Source: Thermodesulfobium acidiphilum (lineage in GTDB: Bacteria > Thermodesulfobiota > Thermodesulfobiia > Thermodesulfobiales > Thermodesulfobiaceae). Taken from it: a DNA stretch of 64,000 bases. A program made the position numbers and the translations under genes. The stretch is from positions 1,476,916 through 1,540,915 of the forward strand of contig NZ_CP020921.1 in assembly GCF_003057965.1 (NCBI RefSeq), in the 5' to 3' direction. The notes below the pieces were generated by a model. The model did not search any database and was not told where the DNA came from. It saw only the letters and a program-made list of their open reading frames with translations. Shown one piece after another: positions 25,021 through 41,956 of the stretch; within the stretch, counting starts at the first letter, position 1; the number at the start of each line of letters is the position of its first letter.

Positions 25021-26082
25021 GTGGACAACTTTCCAAAACTTACTTCTTTAGTACGCTGTGCTGGCTGAGCAGCAAAACTCAATCCAAAGGACCTAGGTGA
25101 GGTTCTAAAAGATTTACCGAAATTTGAACATCCGGGCCTTATTTTTAACTCCGATGGCCTTGATGACGCGGGAGCTTTAGTTATAAAAGACGATATAGCC
25201 ATCGTTCAATCTGTCGACTTTTTCCCTCCTGTGGTAAATAGCCCTGATTTATACGGCAAAATTGCAGCAGCCAATTCTCTTTCTGATTTATATGCAGTTG
25301 GTGCAAAACCCATTACTGCTCTAAATATTTTAGGATTTCCAAGATATGATATTGAACTAAACGTCATAAATGAAATACTCAGGGGTTCCCATGAAAAAGT
25401 AAAGGAAGCAGGAGCATTGATACTGGGGGGGCATAGCATGGACGATATAGAACTTAAATATGGTCTTAGTGTTACTGGAATTGCAAAAAAAGAAGAGCTA
25501 ATAACTCACAACAACGCCCAACCTGGAGATATAATAATCCTTACAAAACCTCTAGGCACAGGAATACTTACTTCTGCTCTAAAAATCGAACTTATTGACG
25601 AAATAGATATGCAAGATGCTCTAAATTCTATGCAAGAATTAAATTATTTTGCAGGTGAAGCACAAAAAAGATTTAAAGCGAGTTCTGGTACAGATGTTAC
25701 AGGTTTTGGGCTGATCGGTCATGCAATAAACATAGCAAAATCTAGTAATGTTATATTTGAAATATTTTCAAATTCTTTACCTATTTTCGAAAGAGTACTA
25801 GAGCTCGCAGATGAAGGAGTACTACCTGCAGGAATTTTTGCAAACATTGATTTCTACAAAGAAAATGTAGTTGAAATAGGAAAAATTCAAGAAAGTTATA
25901 GATATGTTATCTACGATCCGCAAACCTCTGGGGGTTTGCTTTCCACTTATAAACCAGATGTCGTAGATGATGCTTTAAGATTTCTAATTAATAATGGAGT
26001 AAACGCACGCATTATAGGCGTTGTTAAAAACAATACGGTCTTTAATCCTGGCACGATTGTTATTAAAGAAGGGTCTATTTAA
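25021..26082 (+). CDS. selD: Selenide, water dikinase (selenophosphate synthetase), a selenoprotein with Sec at codon 16 (TGA 25066-25068)
   Basis: AGGAGGTG RBS and GTG at 25021 give MDNFPKLTSLVRCAG-U-AAKL..., in frame with DDAG, QSVDFFPPVV, AAANSLSD.YA.G, TDVTGFGL.GH and DPQTSGGLL. Confidence 0.97.
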
Positions 26083-35103: not shown

Positions 35104-36342
35104 ATGCATTCAATAGAACAAGTAAATTTTATCAACGCTAAAATCGTTGTCTCTTTGTTGATTCTTTTATTTCTATTATTTGTCCTTTCAGTAGGAAAAT
35201 CCCCATATTTCAAAATAGACAGGGCTTCAAGCGCAATTATTGGTTCTTGTTTTGTCATAATTTTTAGAATTTTAAACTTTGATCAAGCAGTAAGTTCGGT
35301 AGACATACGAACAATAGTACTGTTATTTAATATGATGATTCTATCAGGAAGCTTAAAATTAGCGGGCTTTTTTCCAATGGCAGGTTTATTTCTTATTTCA
35401 AATGCAAAAAATAGGATTATTCTTTTATATCTAACTATCTTTATCACCGGATTTCTTTCTATGATTATAATTAACGATATCGTCTGTTTGTTATTCACTC
35501 CTATAATTATCTCAATATGTATTAGAACCAAAACATATCCTATACCATTTTTATTAGGAATAGCACTTGCATCTAATATAGGCAGCGCATGTTCTTTGAT
35601 CGGAAATCCTCAGAATATAATGATTGCAAATCTCTCAAAAATTTCATTCCTTCAATATTTTTCTAAAACTTTTTTATTAAGCATAATAGGTCTTTTTTTA
35701 ATATCGATATTACTGCACTTTCTCTATAAAGATAAACTACCAAAAGAATCTTTATCCATAAGGTATAAAAAGTTTGTTTTTCACAGGTATTTAGTTTACA
35801 AAAGTATTTCAGTCTTACTTTTCGTAATAATAGGCTTCCTGTTAAATATTAATCAGGTTGTAATTTCTAGTCTTGGGGTTGCTTTTTTAATGTTAACGAA
35901 AAGAATAAAATCAGAAAAACTTATTAAAGAAGTGGATTATAGTCTTCTTCTTACCTTTATCGGGCTCTTTATAGTAATCGGTGCAGTAGAAAAAAGTGGA
36001 ATCATAAATATAGTTATAAACAATTTAGGCTTTAAAATATTTGATAACATCTATCTTTTTGCTTTTCTAACAGCAATTTTATCAAATATCATTGGAAATG
36101 TGCCATCAGTAATGATACTACATTACTTTATACCAAGTGAAAATATCAATTATGGTTGGACAATTTTAGCTATGATTTCAACACTAGCTGGAAATTTAAC
36201 TTTTACAGGTTCAATAGCCAACATAATAGTAGCTGAAATCGCAAAAAAAAATAAAATTGAAATAAAATTTCTAGACTATCTAAAGATAGGCTTCCCTACC
36301 ACACTCTTATTAATTATTTTAAGCCTACTCACCTTAAAATAA
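35104..36342 (+). CDS. ArsB/NhaD (YbiR-like) anion permease
   Basis: DR..AI.G, ND..CL..TP, ASNIGS...IGNPQN and STLAGNLT..GSIANIIV.E. Confidence 0.9.
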   Translation: MHSIEQVNFINAKIVVSLLILLFLLFVLSVGKSPYFKIDRASSAIIGSCFVIIFRILNFDQAVSSVDIRTIVLLFNMMILSGSLKLAGFFPMAGLFLISNAKNRIILLYLTIFITGFLSMIIINDIVCLLFTPIIISICIRTKTYPIPFLLGIALASNIGSACSLIGNPQNIMIANLSKISFLQYFSKTFLLSIIGLFLISILLHFLYKDKLPKESLSIRYKKFVFHRYLVYKSISVLLFVIIGFLLNINQVVISSLGVAFLMLTKRIKSEKLIKEVDYSLLLTFIGLFIVIGAVEKSGIINIVINNLGFKIFDNIYLFAFLTAILSNIIGNVPSVMILHYFIPSENINYGWTILAMISTLAGNLTFTGSIANIIVAEIAKKNKIEIKFLDYLKIGFPTTLLLIILSLLTLK

Positions 36343-36789
36343 TTAAGTAAATAGCCTAAAGATGTCCAAAATTTTTCCAAACAGCAAAACGAATAAAATT
36401 GTGATAATTAATCTTCCAAAAAAAATAATTTCAAAGTTTGCCCCAATAGCAACAAATATAGCTGTATCCTCAATCATTGCATGAGACAAAACCAAAAAAA
36501 TATTTATTAAGACTATTTCTTTTGGACTTATAAGTCCTTTCTTTACTTCATCAAACATAGTTCCTGCACCATATATGAGACCAAAGATTATTCCAGCTGC
36601 CAAAGGAATTGCAGAATTTTTAGAAAAACCAAGATATTTAATAATTTTTGAAACACTATTACAAAACTTACCCCAAAACGAGCTTCTTTTAAAAATTTCA
36701 ATAAAAATCATGAGAGGTATAACTATCGTTGCTATGGTAAAAATAGTTCCAATCGATCCGAAAGCTGCTTCTTCTAGTATTTGTATCAT
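36343..36789 (-). CDS. Nucleoside recognition (Gate) domain membrane protein
   Basis: G..FGL.YGAG and HAMIEDT..F...GA motifs. Confidence 0.85.
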   Translation of the reverse strand: MIQILEEAAFGSIGTIFTIATIVIPLMIFIEIFKRSSFWGKFCNSVSKIIKYLGFSKNSAIPLAAGIIFGLIYGAGTMFDEVKKGLISPKEIVLINIFLVLSHAMIEDTAIFVAIGANFEIIFFGRLIITILFVLLFGKILDIFRLFT

Positions 36790-37217
36790 CTTAGCATTAT
36801 ATTAAGGCAAAAACCCGCAATAAAAGAAGTTAAAATTCTAAAAATAGTTATGAAAAAAGGGTTTATACCTATCTTTGAACAAATAACTCCTTCAAGAATA
36901 AGACTGTGAGCAATCAAGACCATTGTTGCAAGTATGGTGATCTCTCTAGGATTAAAAGTTAAACCCATTATTACTCCAACTGCAGAATATATGTTCAAAA
37001 TATAACCTGTAATCAGAACAAGTGAAGCCTCTCCTGGAAGACCGAAATATTTCATAAACGGAGAAAATAAGATATTTAAATAATATATAAAGGGAGTAGC
37101 CTTAAGAATTGTTACCACAAAAAAAACAGGAACAACTATTTTAACAAGATTAAAGGTCGTAATTAATCCTCTATTAAAACCAACCTTTACACCTTCTAGA
37201 AGATAACTTTTATCCAT
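36786..37217 (-). CDS. Nucleoside recognition (Gate) domain membrane protein
   Basis: P.M..FGLPGEA, N.YSA.G and HSL..E motifs; ATGA overlap with the downstream partner. Confidence 0.85.
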   Translation of the reverse strand: MDKSYLLEGVKVGFNRGLITTFNLVKIVVPVFFVVTILKATPFIYYLNILFSPFMKYFGLPGEASLVLITGYILNIYSAVGVIMGLTFNPREITILATMVLIAHSLILEGVICSKIGINPFFITIFRILTSFIAGFCLNIMLR

Positions 37218-37315
37218 GTATATAATTATATCAAACAAAACTCTTAAAACTCTTTACAGATTTTTTAAAATATATAATATTTTTATATATATTCATTAGA
37301 GTTTAAGGAGAAAAA

Positions 37316-37966
37316 ATGAACATAGTACATATTTTTTCAGGAGGATTAGATTCCACCACTCTTTTATACTATCTGCTAAATGAAGGTCACAAAGTCAAAA
37401 CAATAAGTTTTTTCTATGGGCAGAAACATAATAAGGAACTTGAATGCTCAAAAAATATTGCCAAAAAACTAAATATAGAAAATAAATTAATTGATCTAAG
37501 CGCTCTAAAAAATGTTTTTGGAAAAAGTTCTTTAACAAGTGAAATAGATGTGCCTGAAGGTCATTATAACGATATAAATATGAAATCTACAGTAGTCCCA
37601 AACAGAAATATGATTTTTTTATCAATTGCAATCTCTTATGCAATATCCTCAAACTTTGATGCAGTGTCTATAGGAGTTCATGCAGGAGATCATGCAATAT
37701 ATCCAGACTGCCGCCCTGTTTTTATAAACAGGATGAAAGAAGTTGCAAAAGTCTCAGACTACAACGAAATAGACATACTCACACCCTTTTTAGATTTCAA
37801 AAAATGCGAGATTGTAAAAATAGGTCTGGAACTAAAAGTTCCTTATGAAATGACATGGACATGTTATAGGGGAGAAGAAAAACCCTGTCTAAAATGCGGC
37901 GCATGTACAGAAAGGCTTGAAGCATTTAAACTAAATAATGTAAAAGATCCTCTACTTCTTATTTAA
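37316..37966 (+). CDS. queC: 7-cyano-7-deazaguanine synthase
   Basis: SGGLDSTT, YGQKH..E, VPNRN, YPDCR, TWTCY and C..CG.C..R. Confidence 0.97.
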   Translation: MNIVHIFSGGLDSTTLLYYLLNEGHKVKTISFFYGQKHNKELECSKNIAKKLNIENKLIDLSALKNVFGKSSLTSEIDVPEGHYNDINMKSTVVPNRNMIFLSIAISYAISSNFDAVSIGVHAGDHAIYPDCRPVFINRMKEVAKVSDYNEIDILTPFLDFKKCEIVKIGLELKVPYEMTWTCYRGEEKPCLKCGACTERLEAFKLNNVKDPLLLI

Positions 37967-38170
37967 TTCCTTTCTTGATTCCTCCACTACACGGTGGACG
38001 TCAGCCAAACATCAAGTACCCCTGGGATTGTTCAAATGACATGCACACTTACCTTCCTTCTTTTTGTTTACTATAAACTGCTCTATTCTAGAGATACCGT
38101 TGTTCTTTATCACGTCTTCTTTAATTTCATTATCAGTAAAACCAAAACAATAACAAATAGTTTGATTCAT
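37952..38170 (-). CDS. BFD-like/CopZ-type [2Fe-2S]-binding selenoprotein, 72 aa, Sec at codon 53 (TGA 38012-38014)
   Basis: Not in the ORF track. MNQTICYCFGFTDNEIKEDVIKNNGISRIEQFIVNKKKEGKCACHLNNPRGT-U-CLADVHRVVEESRKELNKK*. Matches the CYC...CxC...NPxGxCC pattern with UGA at the first Cys of CC, and a hairpin follows the UGA. Confidence 0.88.
37983..37998 (-). promoter_or_regulatory. Candidate bacterial SECIS element of the 72-aa selenoprotein
   Basis: On the minus strand, TCCAC-CGTGTA-GTGGA. The apical loop starts 18 nt after the UGA and has G at loop position 2. Confidence 0.65.
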
Positions 38171-38339
38171 AGTTCACCACTTTTCTAAAATATTACTATT
38201 TTTATTATAATATAAATATAATTATAAATAAATAGAAGGAGGTGTTGTCCATGTTAATTAGATGATTTACAAGAGAAACTTTAAATAGATACGTAGTTTA
38301 CGTATCACAATATACAAAATCAAGAAAAGGAGAGATATC

Positions 38340-39602
38340 ATGGACAACACCAAAATGCACAAATCGCTTGGTATAGATTTAAAGGCTCATGATACCCTAA
38401 TTAGAGCACTTCCAGAATTATTTAAGGAATGTTTTTTAAATAAAGAACAGGATCTAAAAAGTCTTTCATACTTTTATTCAGTAGTTGCTGATATACACGG
38501 GACAAGAGTAAAAGAACTAATAGAACACAAAAATAAAGGACCCGTTATTGGTTCGTTTTGTATTTACGTACCCGAAGAAATAATTTTAGCTATAGGTGGA
38601 CAACTGGTAGGCCTTTGTGCAGGAGCTGATTTTTGGGTCCCATACGGAGAACAAATAGTACCAAAAAATCTGTGCCCATTAATAAAAGCAGGTATCGGAG
38701 CAAAATTTTCAAAAACCTGCCCATACTTTCAGGTAATAGACCTGTTAATAGGAGAAAATACATGTGATGGCAAAAAAAAGGCATGGGAAATACTTTCTGA
38801 TATGGTCGAGATGTATATAATGGATATGCCAAACAAAAAAAGCAATAGTGGGTTAAAGCTTTGGCAGGAAGAAGTAAAGAGTTTATGCAATTTCCTGGAG
38901 AAAAAATTCAGCAAACCTATAAGTTTTGATTCTCTTTTAAAAGCAGTACAGAAAGTAAATGCAAAAAGAAGTGCACTAAATAGACTTTATGAAACTAGAA
39001 AAAATTCTCCGACTCCAATATCAGGAATAGATACTCTATTAGTTACGCAAATAGGCTTTTATGATGACACAGAAAGATATACAAAAATGGTAGAAACTCT
39101 TGCCAAAGAATGTGAAGAAAAAGCATTATCAAATTCTAAAAGCAATGACAAAAAAAGAATTTTGGTTACAGGCTCTCCAATGGTTGTGCCTAATTGGAAG
39201 GTTCACCATGTGATAGAAACAAGTGGTGCCGATGTAGTGGTCGAAGAAAATTGCACCGGCACAAGATATTTTAAGGACAACGTTTCAATAGAAAATTCTT
39301 TAGCTAAAGAAGATCTTTTAAAGAATATATCAGATAGGTATATAAGGAACATAAATTGTGCATGTTTTTCTCCAAACACAGATAGAGAAGAAGAGATATT
39401 AAAAATTTGTAAAGATTATAAAGTTGATGGCATTGTATATGCATCGCTTAGCTTTTGTACTACTTATATGATAGAAGCAGAAAAAATAAGAAAAGTAGCG
39501 AAAAAAAATAATATACCTATGATTACAGTAGAATCAGATTACTCGTTTTCGGATCTTGGCCAACTCAGGACAAGAATAGAAGCCTTTATAGAAAACCTAT
39601 GA
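38340..39602 (+). CDS. Double-cubane [8Fe-9S] cluster protein (DCCP)-type anaerobic reductase (2-hydroxyacyl-CoA dehydratase superfamily)
   Basis: N-terminal LGIDL.AHD.L...YF..V...IHG.R.KEL and Cys motifs FCIYVPEE, GLCAG, LCPLIK, CPYF, TCDGKKK, ENCTG, NCACF, FC; C-terminal E.DYS..D.GQL.TR.EAF.E. Confidence 0.88.
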   Translation: MDNTKMHKSLGIDLKAHDTLIRALPELFKECFLNKEQDLKSLSYFYSVVADIHGTRVKELIEHKNKGPVIGSFCIYVPEEIILAIGGQLVGLCAGADFWVPYGEQIVPKNLCPLIKAGIGAKFSKTCPYFQVIDLLIGENTCDGKKKAWEILSDMVEMYIMDMPNKKSNSGLKLWQEEVKSLCNFLEKKFSKPISFDSLLKAVQKVNAKRSALNRLYETRKNSPTPISGIDTLLVTQIGFYDDTERYTKMVETLAKECEEKALSNSKSNDKKRILVTGSPMVVPNWKVHHVIETSGADVVVEENCTGTRYFKDNVSIENSLAKEDLLKNISDRYIRNINCACFSPNTDREEEILKICKDYKVDGIVYASLSFCTTYMIEAEKIRKVAKKNNIPMITVESDYSFSDLGQLRTRIEAFIENL

Positions 39603-40348
39603 AGATACTTGGTTTGGATATAGGCTCAAGGAGTATAAAATGGGTTCTTTATGAAACAAGTTTTAGTTGTATCTTAGAAAAAGGTATATTAGACAGTACC
39701 CCACACAGTCTTGAAAGAATAGAAGAAATTATCCCCTCCTTTGACAAAATTGGTCTTACCGGTTATGGCAGACATAATTTAAACAACGTACTAAGAACAA
39801 AATCTCCAAAGATAGTTTCAGAGATAACCTGTCACGCTAAGGGAGCAAAATTTATAGAGCCAGGACACCATTATTTATTAGATATTGGAGGTCAGGATAC
39901 AAAGTTTATAACTCTCGATGCATCAGGAAAAATTATAGATTTTAAACTTAATGATAGATGCTCAGCCGGAACGGGTAGATATATTGAAAATATGGCTAAA
40001 ATTTTAGATTTAGAGATTCAAGATTTTATAAACATGGCAATTAAATCCGAAAAACCTTCTAACATAAATTCAATGTGTACCGTATTTGCAGAAAGTGAAA
40101 TAATAAGTCTAATTCATTCGAGAGAAAGAATAGAAGACATATCTGCAGGAATAATAAAATCGTTAATATTTAGAACAAAAGCCTTAATTGGAACAAATAA
40201 AATAGATGAAAAAATATTACTATTGGGTGGTCTTTCAGAATTAGAAAACATAGAGATTTTGTTCGAAAGGTTTGATTTAGAAGTCAAAAAAAATGAACTA
40301 TCAAGGTATACAGGTGCATTGGGAGCAGCACTAGTTTTAGTTGATTAA
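39599..40348 (+). CDS. ATP-dependent activase (acyl-CoA dehydratase activase / DCCP-R type)
   Basis: GLDIGSRSIK, TGYGR, EI.CH..G, DIGGQDTK, NDRCSAGTGR and INSMCTVFAESE. Confidence 0.93.
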   Translation: MKILGLDIGSRSIKWVLYETSFSCILEKGILDSTPHSLERIEEIIPSFDKIGLTGYGRHNLNNVLRTKSPKIVSEITCHAKGAKFIEPGHHYLLDIGGQDTKFITLDASGKIIDFKLNDRCSAGTGRYIENMAKILDLEIQDFINMAIKSEKPSNINSMCTVFAESEIISLIHSRERIEDISAGIIKSLIFRTKALIGTNKIDEKILLLGGLSELENIEILFERFDLEVKKNELSRYTGALGAALVLVD

Positions 40349-40422: not shown

Positions 40423-40719
40423 ATGCAAAGAACTGGATTCCCATCGCCTGCAAAAAATTACGAAAAGCTTGATATAGATCTTAACAAATTGCTAATAGAT
40501 AGTCCTTCTTCAACATTTTTCTTTAGAACAAAGAGGGATTATAAAGAATTAGGTCTAAAAAATGGGGATATCATAATAGTAGACAGGTCAAAACATCTGA
40601 GAAAATCTATCCTATTAGTCGTTTTACTGGACGGACGCCTTACAATAAAGAATATCTGTGATATAAAGCCAGAAACAGAAATATTTGGCAAAATTACCTA
40701 TGTCATTAGAAAATTGTGA
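40423..40719 (+). CDS. umuD: UmuD-like protein (short, catalytic Ser absent)
   Basis: GFPSPA..Y....DLN.LLI..P..TFF.R, GD..IVDRS, DG..T.K and I.G..TYVI; overlaps umuC. Confidence 0.8.
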   Translation: MQRTGFPSPAKNYEKLDIDLNKLLIDSPSSTFFFRTKRDYKELGLKNGDIIIVDRSKHLRKSILLVVLLDGRLTIKNICDIKPETEIFGKITYVIRKL

Positions 40720-41956
40720 AAGTCTTTTTGCCTTGATAGATTGCAATAATTTTTACGTATCGTGTGAAAGGCTATATAATCCAGCCCTATTATACAAACC
40801 TGTTGTCGTATTATCAAATAACGATGGGTGTATAATTGCAAGATCCAACGAGGCAAAAAAATTAGGGATAAAAATGGGTGTTTCGTATTTTCAAATAAGA
40901 GATTTCCTTAAAAAAAACAAAGTTGCGGTTATCTCATCAAATTATGAAATATATGAAGATATATCAAAGAGATTTATAAATATAATAAAGTCCAAAATAT
41001 GCTTTGTAGAAGCATATTCAATAGACGAAGCTTTCATAGAGTTAAAAGGAATTTTTAAAAAGAGGAGTTTTGAATTTTGTAAAGGGTTAAAGGAAGATAT
41101 ATATCGGCTTATAGGAATACCAGTTTCTATAGGTATAGGCAGAACAAAAACTCTGGCAAAGGTTGCAAACAAAATAGCCAAAAAAAATAAAGACCTCAAC
41201 GGAATATTTGATATAACAGGAAGGGAAGAAGAAATCCTCAAAACCTTTGATGTGGAAGATATATGGAGAATTGGCAAGAGCAAAGCCAATTGTCTGAAGG
41301 GTATGGGAATAACAAATGCCCTAAATCTATCAAAAATAGATAATTCACTTGCTCAAAAAACTCTTGGCATAAATGGCTTAACTACAGTATTCGAGTTAAG
41401 AGGAATAAAATGCATAAATTTACAAGAAAAAAAGCCTATCCAAAAGGAGATAATAGTATCAAGGTCTTTTGGACATGATATCGGCAACTATAAAGAATTG
41501 AAAGAAGGCGTTTCACATTTTTCTGCAATTGCTGCTAAAAATATGAGAAACCTAAACTTATATACAAAAACGTTATCTGTTTTTATAACTTCTAATCCAT
41601 TTAAAGATGGGTTTTATACTAATCAGGCAGAAATTAATTTTGACTTTTATACCAGAGATACATTTCTTATATTACAAGCTGCTGAAAAATGTCTAAATAA
41701 AATATTCAAAGAAAATATAAAATACAAAAAAGCCGGTGTAATCCTAAGGAATTTAACAAATTGCGTTTGTTTAGGAAATTTATTTACAAATTTAGAAATT
41801 GAAAACAAACACAATCTGATGAAAGCCATAGATTTATTAAACAAAAAAATAAAAAAAGACGCTGTATTCTTCGCTGCTGAAGGAGTAAATAAGCTCTGGC
41901 AAGCAAAAAAAGAATATACATCAAATTACAACGCAAGCGAAATAATTCTTATTTAA
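40700..41956 (+). CDS. umuC: Y-family DNA polymerase, UmuC type
   Basis: FALIDCNNFYVSCER, PVVVLSNNDGCIIARS.EAK, YSIDEAF, TKTLAK.AN and SRSFG. Confidence 0.94.
   Translation: MSLENCESLFALIDCNNFYVSCERLYNPALLYKPVVVLSNNDGCIIARSNEAKKLGIKMGVSYFQIRDFLKKNKVAVISSNYEIYEDISKRFINIIKSKICFVEAYSIDEAFIELKGIFKKRSFEFCKGLKEDIYRLIGIPVSIGIGRTKTLAKVANKIAKKNKDLNGIFDITGREEEILKTFDVEDIWRIGKSKANCLKGMGITNALNLSKIDNSLAQKTLGINGLTTVFELRGIKCINLQEKKPIQKEIIVSRSFGHDIGNYKELKEGVSHFSAIAAKNMRNLNLYTKTLSVFITSNPFKDGFYTNQAEINFDFYTRDTFLILQAAEKCLNKIFKENIKYKKAGVILRNLTNCVCLGNLFTNLEIENKHNLMKAIDLLNKKIKKDAVFFAAEGVNKLWQAKKEYTSNYNASEIILI

Follow-up and report, generated by a model that had tools for sequence, protein, structure and literature searches.

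We analysed a locus in a 64,000-nucleotide stretch of the Thermodesulfobium acidiphilum genome (contig NZ_CP020921.1, positions 1,476,916 to 1,540,915; "the window" below means this whole stretch), where a small selenoprotein gene on the minus strand stands head to head with the genes of a double-cubane cluster protein (DCCP) and its ATP-dependent activase on the plus strand. Taken as a whole, the results probably describe two independent units lying back to back, one a selenocysteine (Sec) protein and the other a DCCP pair with a leader model of its own. Comparisons of gene neighbourhoods indicate that the head-to-head arrangement was most likely inherited within one genus and is not a conserved functional module. 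The identities given to the three genes, namely small selenoprotein, DCCP and activase, are close to certain. Both families have already been described, and a working partnership of the selenoprotein with DCCP is unproven, since the pairing occurs in one genus only. The three genes, together with the elements found inside the small one, are as follows.

37955-38170, minus strand: small selenoprotein gene, 72 amino acids (aa) when read through one in-frame TGA, Sec being U53
38012-38014, minus strand: UGA of the small gene, codon 53, presumably read as Sec; the TGA is kept in the genus and in homologues
37983-37998, minus strand: hairpin of the selenocysteine insertion sequence (SECIS) type in the small gene, 5-bp stem UCCAC/GUGGA, loop CGUGUA
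38340-39602, plus strand: DCCP of the HGD-D family, 420 aa (NF040772, 6ENO/7YYL)
39599-40348, plus strand: DCCP-R type ATP-dependent activase, a BcrAD/BadFG ATPase of 249 aa (TIGR00241, PF01869)

Distribution of the gene pair

The first-pass annotation, made from the sequence of the window alone, had proposed that the three genes form a co-regulated unit, with the small protein as a partner of DCCP and with expression tied to selenium status. It had named comparison of the neighbourhoods of DCCP homologues as a way to check this, and a lack of co-occurrence outside very close relatives as evidence against it. In the collection that we searched, the genus is represented by four species genomes, and everything outside it is listed as "same domain" only. 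A degenerate DNA pattern (CYCF...NPxGx-TGA-TG) recovered at least 120 loci of Sec-encoding homologues, chiefly from Desulfobacterota and Nitrospirota, and 80 of them, mostly from Desulfobacterota, were taken with their flanks. No DCCP, activase or queC gene was found at any of these 80 loci within up to 6 kb on each side. Metagenome loci with relatives of the small protein numbered 75. Two of them, at 79% identity, reproduced the whole synteny in the order CitMHS, Gate, Gate, queC, small gene, DCCP, activase, UmuD; the remaining 73 (28-56% identity), among which 39 had at least 1.5 kb of upstream sequence, carried neither a DCCP nor an activase.

The same result was obtained from the side of DCCP. 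A CxC...[NH]P...[CU]C protein, sought in any frame, was present at none of 20 DCCP loci from a broad sample of 401 genomes, and a CopZ-like motif was present at none of 80 further loci, the best 80 of at least 667 in the species collection and thus those most similar to the DCCP studied here; the window's own small gene, which served as positive control, was recovered in both searches. Within the 401-genome sample, 29 genomes from outside the genus possessed a DCCP above cut-off and 17 a strong match to the small family (at least 50 bits). Both families occurred together in two genomes, where they were not adjacent, and as about 1.2 such genomes would be expected by chance there is no excess. 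The pairing was found only at genus level, in four genomes and two metagenome contigs, and no adjacency of the two families was seen beyond these relatives. With zero of 80, zero of 73, zero of 20 and zero of 80 loci outside them, the outcome is the one that the first-pass annotation had named as speaking against its proposal, and the three-gene module is not supported. Conserved synteny within one genus says, by itself, little for or against a module.

The small protein as a member of a known selenoprotein family

By all sequence evidence the small gene is a genuine selenoprotein gene with Sec at UGA-53. The TGA occupies the same codon in the genomes of all four species of the genus, among which the small proteins are 77-86% identical over their full length, the 19 residues past the TGA included. 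The read-through product (MNQTICYCFGF...NPRGT-U-CLADVHRVVEESRKELNKK) has the cysteine pattern C6-x-C8...C42-x-C44...N-P-R-G-T-U53-C54. Beginning 13 nt past the UGA, the segment GTCCACCGTGTAGTGGA is invariant in the four species, whereas synonymous sites elsewhere in the gene vary; the spacing between the UGA and the SECIS stem is 13 nt in this gene, one more than the 12 nt of the family consensus. We aligned the hairpin in 79 sequences, 75 pattern-selected ones and the four of the genus, and found pairing in 93.7% of cells, compared with 25-60% when the 3' partner was slid. Double changes were counted in 15 cells, a number reached by none of 500 shuffles; in one example, a synonymous GUC>GUU change is paired with GAC>AAC on the opposite arm. 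The genome, a single contig of 1.77 Mb with 33.7% G+C, also encodes machinery for Sec, including selD, selB and a tRNA-Sec gene directly upstream of selB. We propose that UGA-53 would be read through with the help of the hairpin 12-13 nt downstream. The minus-strand gene of 72 aa with an in-frame UGA, as described in the first-pass annotation, is therefore supported by the TGA kept in all four species, the covarying hairpin and the Sec machinery, and it is indeed hidden from gene callers, for the protein database holds its 52-aa truncated product only. The gene should be annotated as a 72-aa selenoprotein and not as a 52-aa protein.

A library-wide HMMER search returned 803 relatives of the small protein at E <= 0.001. 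Among the short ones, many are cut off right in front of the UGA or have a W in its place (TGA translated as W); longer relatives have CC at the UGA column, so that a Cys is aligned to the Sec position. At 76 of the 80 pattern-selected homologue loci the reading continues in frame as ...NPxGxUCLxDV[RH]xVV.... In public protein collections, Sec forms of this family are in this way widely mis-called.

The predicted small protein appears to be the stand-alone C-terminal half of the CopZ N-terminal/Bfd-like [2Fe-2S] domain, in a short form. Among profiles, NF047645 (CopZ_Nterm_CC) matched it with E 1.6e-16 and 60.8 bits, less than the 100 bits of the equivalog cut-off; of the 138 profile positions the match takes in 85-137, and the N-terminal zinc-ribbon half of the profile is left uncovered. 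NF045877 (Csac_0668), which describes a CU form, gave 24.7 against a cut-off of 190 bits, the order of the pair here being U-C, and Pfam Fer2_BFD gave 20.9 bits on the truncated protein, under its cut-off of 26 bits. A search of the PDB with phmmer and the single 72-aa sequence produced chance matches only. A profile built from 28 relatives, by comparison, matched residues 72-120 of the N-terminal domain of Archaeoglobus fulgidus CopZ (2HU9) with E 0.0047, aligning C6/C8 with C75/C77, C44 with C109 and U53-C54 with C118-C119; Sec would lie beside the last of the putative cluster-ligand cysteines. An AlphaFold2 model of the small protein (predicted local distance difference test, pLDDT, 96) came closest to Bfd (4E6K, 6E6R), with VIA Z 5.7 and a root-mean-square deviation (rmsd) of 2.3 A over 53-54 of 56-57 residues, followed by 2HU9 with VIA Z 3.4 and rmsd 2.5 A over 58 residues. 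The Foldseek E-values for the model were weak, all about 1 or higher.

These features place the small protein, as judged from its motif, profile and predicted fold, as an additional member of an already described family. The CopZ-like (2Fe-2S)-binding form 1 with a GxUC motif is listed as a prokaryotic selenoprotein family in two reviews (PMC9312934, PMC13188914). The protein here has the G-x-U-C motif with its UGA aligned to the Cys of CC forms, a BFD-like/CopZ N-terminal domain (cd10141-type) recognised by profile and fold, a downstream SECIS and genomic Sec machinery. It resembles the listed form-1 proteins in its CxC...C...UC pattern, in a fold like that of BFD and the CopZ N-terminal domain and in the hairpin downstream of its UGA, and nothing essential differs; its source is a genus without near relatives in the searched collection. 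The earlier suggestion of an iron-sulfur selenoprotein was in this way confirmed and made more specific, as a BFD/CopZ-like protein of a known family. Relative to A. fulgidus CopZ, it is the C-terminal [2Fe-2S] subdomain of the N-terminal domain that is aligned; the small protein lacks the N-terminal zinc-ribbon half and the fused metal-binding domain of CopZ (2HU9, NF047645, NF045877). Bfd is the best structural match, but the small protein has an extra C-terminal helix and the UC pair, and no bacterioferritin context.

The gene neighbourhoods of relatives suggest a redox role or a role in handling thiophilic metals or metalloids, mostly in arsenic and mercury contexts. We counted up to four nearest open reading frames (ORFs) at each of the 80 Sec-homologue loci, with thresholds of 1e-5 and 1e-12, and found neighbours of the arsenic/mercury type at 20 loci; counting a lone MerA-like oxidoreductase raises this to 21. 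These neighbours comprised ArsR, ArsP, Acr3-type SBF, LMWPc, ArsD, ArsA, MerR, MerT, MerC, TauE, chromate transporter and DUF364 genes. Around 14 of the closest metagenome relatives we saw ArsR with ArsP, thioredoxin genes, a methyltransferase gene accompanied by one for cation efflux, and an Acr3-type gene that immediately precedes the homologue in the same orientation. The NCBI label "putative iron-sulfur cluster-binding metallochaperone" agrees with these contexts. A recurring setting, met at three loci, has a homologue of the small protein flanked by a DUF3334 gene on one side and by a PHO4-type phosphate transporter gene, accompanied by a PhoU-like one, on the other. In the window itself, the small gene and queC converge and share 12 nt (37955-37966), so that four terminal codons of each gene face the other; this overlap is kept within the genus.

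DCCP, its activase and the link to selenium

The pair on the plus strand, which the first-pass annotation had read as a DCCP-like reductase and its activase, is by sequence a class-I-type DCCP with its ATPase reductase. The DCCP scored 470.6 bits with NF040772, above the cut-off of 350, and matched the solved structures 6ENO/7YYL over residues 1-418, essentially full-length, with 439-441 bits. None of its seven cysteines (74, 93, 112, 142, 305, 340 and 373) varies among 20 sequences, and each has a Cys counterpart in 7YYL. They follow the DCCP motif as C74-X18-C93-X18-C112-X29-C142-X162-C305-X34-C340-X32-C373, in which two spacers deviate from the printed motif by 1 and 4 residues. The adjacent gene product reached 190.2 bits with TIGR00241 (cut-off 125.4), as expected of a DCCP-R. 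Its residues C121 and C160 do not vary among 16 sequences, and its start codon shares bases with the stop codon of DCCP (ATGA). In other genomes the activase gene adjoins DCCP at 17 of 20 and 60 of 80 loci. Compared with DCCP/DCCP-R of Carboxydothermus hydrogenoformans (6ENO, 7YYL), the pair has the same seven cluster cysteines, the same overlapping adjacent activase and a similar "class I" length, 420 aa here and 421 aa there. It differs in having a genus-specific leader and a divergent selenoprotein neighbour, and in having no DUF3343 or Sec-lyase-like neighbour. The physiological role and substrate of DCCPs are, according to passages of PMC9351452, still open for the whole family. This locus by itself leaves that question standing, because the pairing is restricted to a single genus.

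The first-pass annotation, which had proposed a selenium-linked module, was right in so far as a connection between the DCCP family and selenium is found both in the literature and in our neighbourhood counts. In the passages of Haft and Gwadz (10.1101/2022.07.06.499078) that concern DCCP, 955 of 970 high-scoring NF040772 proteins belong to SelD-containing assemblies and a DCCP lies within 5 kb of 21 of 52 SAO selenoprotein cassettes, from which these authors conclude that DCCP may process selenium compounds or carry a selenium-bridged cluster. The association also appears in a STRING table (Lin et al. 2015, PMC5322559, Table 1); neither selenium nor desulfurases come up in the DCCP review. 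The 80 most similar DCCP loci sharpen this link. A gene for the Se/S carrier DUF3343 (PF11823) is present at 41 of them, about half, in every case above the Pfam cut-off, and in 34 of the 41 it begins directly after DCCP, no more than about 125 nt downstream. A class-V aminotransferase gene of the Sec-lyase/cysteine-desulfurase-like type occurs at 27 of the 80, or a third, mostly directly before DCCP, and selD lies within 6 kb at 11. We found adjacency of DCCP and DUF3343 in print only as the STRING table entry of PMC5322559, and not in the searched passages of the DCCP review and the Haft preprint. In the broad sample, DUF3343 was adjacent in 2 of 29 DCCP genomes and present somewhere in the genome in 13 of 29. 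The locus in the window resembles the published association in its SelD-containing, Sec-decoding genome and its small neighbour rich in Cys and Sec; it differs in that selD is 12 kb off, the neighbour belongs to a different family and no SAO cassette was found, the genome searches for SaoL and SaoC being negative and their controls likewise without matches.

These counts raise the question of whether, in this genus, the CopZ-like selenoprotein was recruited to the DCCP system in place of DUF3343 as a selenium or sulfur carrier. Such a partner could transport selenium, sulfur or a metalloid, pass electrons to the activase, or help the cluster to mature. The placement of DUF3343 at the 80 loci and the published links to SelD and the SAO cassette speak for recruitment, as do the closest DCCP relatives (55-56% identity), which have DUF3343, and the genus itself, where none of the four genomes has a PF11823 match and all four have the small selenoprotein beside DCCP. 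On the other side, the pairing has no second lineage, the two genes lie on opposite strands with separate translation signals, and relatives of the small protein are found in arsenic or mercury contexts and not in DCCP contexts. In addition, DUF3343 is not adjacent in 27 of the 29 DCCP genomes of the broad sample, so its absence here needs no substitute. We consider recruitment, with the selenoprotein substituting for a missing DUF3343 carrier, unlikely. The most far-reaching version, in which the CopZ-like Sec protein is a dedicated carrier or electron donor and DCCPs in general act on selenium or metalloids handed over by carriers, seems to us no more probable. If it were true, DCCP might make selenide for SelD or insert the bridging chalcogen of a cluster, and the pair described here would be a minimal two-protein system for probing DCCP function. 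The reading of two independent units remains the one that we prefer.

The divergent region and the leader of DCCP

The start codons of the small gene and DCCP are separated by a shared region that the first-pass annotation had put at 170 bp and that measures 169 bp. It contains the following elements.

38171-38339, no strand assigned: divergent intergenic region of 169 bp, AT-rich, with strongly conserved blocks
38236-38242, plus strand: Shine-Dalgarno sequence AAGGAGG, upstream of a 4-codon upstream ORF (uORF)
38251-38265, plus strand: 4-codon uORF, ATG TTA ATT AGA TGA, conserved as M-[L/I]-I-R-UGA in all four species
38241-38253, plus strand: 5' arm of a predicted 13-bp long-range helix, GGUGUUGUCCAUG, holding the uORF start; perfect inverted repeat
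38339-38351, plus strand: 3' arm of this helix, CAUGGACAACACC, holding the DCCP start codon (38340-38342); perfect inverted repeat
38288-38306, no strand assigned: perfect palindrome GATACGTA-GTT-TACGTATC, with an 8-bp stem and a 3-nt loop, invariant in the four species

The uORF and the helix that would bury the DCCP start codon appear to form a genus-specific leader feature, possibly one of translational control; no leader like it was found upstream of 20 other DCCP genes. The uORF starts with ATG in two species and with GTG in the other two, and shows one synonymous ATT>ATC change. The helix, which extends to a match of 16 nt at 94% complementarity, is kept at 13 bp in all four species, with the one-sided changes A-U>G-U and G-U>G-C. 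Under this model, translation of the uORF by ribosomes would melt the 13-bp helix and so expose the DCCP AUG, and the palindrome would act as either an operator or an RNA element. If it holds, the leader would be a compact case of translational control of a reductase. No second perfect copy of the palindrome exists in the 1.77-Mb genome, and its hairpin fold has a z of -2.49. A copy with two mismatches (genome position 804792) falls within an ORF of 653 aa and was judged a chance match. A second inverted repeat (38279-38292/38371-38384) was rejected, 9 of 14 positions being kept in the sister species.

The first-pass annotation had also described a second UGA-plus-hairpin element in the DCCP leader. 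Both the UGA and the hairpin are present, yet they are the stop codon of the uORF and the palindrome, and the element (38263-38306) does not have the features of a SECIS. One could still suppose that it is SECIS-like and binds SelB, thereby tying DCCP translation to selenium: the UGA is conserved in all four species, the hairpin follows it after 22 nt, near the 19-nt spacing of selD in this genome, and G is the first loop position. The 3-nt loop GUU on an A/U-rich stem is, however, unlike the G-rich loops of genuine SECIS elements in this genome (AGGUG in selD and CGUGUA in the small gene), and the stem is unlike theirs as well. A second UGA follows one codon later, as UUU-UGA, in three of the four species, so no readable, conserved ORF continues past the leader UGA. 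Rfam at gathering thresholds returned three tRNAs only, with nothing below E 2.8 around the locus, and the invariance of the hairpin sequence means that covariation cannot support an RNA role. A selenium-sensing leader is thus very improbable. More plausible, though still doubtful, is the view that the palindrome and the 13-nt inverted repeat are DNA sites at which a repressor or activator controls one or both divergent promoters. The dyad is perfect, unique in the genome, invariant in the four species and placed between two divergent genes, all of which would suit an operator; no regulator gene is adjacent, and the boundaries of the 13-nt repeat fall exactly on two start codons, at one of which the ATG>GTG change keeps G-U pairing, so that RNA fits this repeat better than DNA. 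This alternative touches the leader mechanism only and is compatible with either reading of the gene pair.

Several observations weigh against our preferred combination of two independent units and a translational leader. The genes are adjacent in all six genus-level records and the region between them is strongly conserved, so the two units may be co-regulated within the genus. As DCCPs are tied to selenium in general, a selenoprotein neighbour is less coincidental than a random gene would be, and the sample of Sec loci (80 of at least 120, mostly Desulfobacterota) is biased. For the leader, the fold is thermodynamically unremarkable (z -1.28; 14 of 200 shuffles fold equally well), none of the helix pairs shows a change on both sides, and the coding role of the 3' arm constrains its sequence too. 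A scan of the divergent region for promoters and terminators gave no signal above shuffles. Finally, the [2Fe-2S] binding, the role of Sec and the metal(loid) function of the small protein are predicted properties.

The first-pass annotation had further pointed to selD about 12 kb away, and the measured distance from its end to the start of the small gene is 12,088 bp, with unrelated genes between.

25021-26082, plus strand: selD, itself a selenoprotein gene, with UGA codon 16 at 25066-25068 and a hairpin loop AGGUG

This selD is not part of the unit of the small gene and DCCP. Its surroundings are a group of ABC-transporter genes (HlyD, two ATPases and an ABC-2 permease) and not other selenium genes. 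Closer to the locus, two overlapping small membrane proteins of the Gate (nucleoside recognition) type at 36343-37238 lie beside a CitMHS/ArsB-like permease (35104-36342), and these three genes are syntenic in the genus. Neighbours of the Gate-domain, queC, CitMHS and UmuD types were not found near DCCP at the other 100 DCCP loci. Directly after the activase, at 40423-41956, follow a UmuD-like S24 peptidase and a UmuC-type Y-family polymerase.

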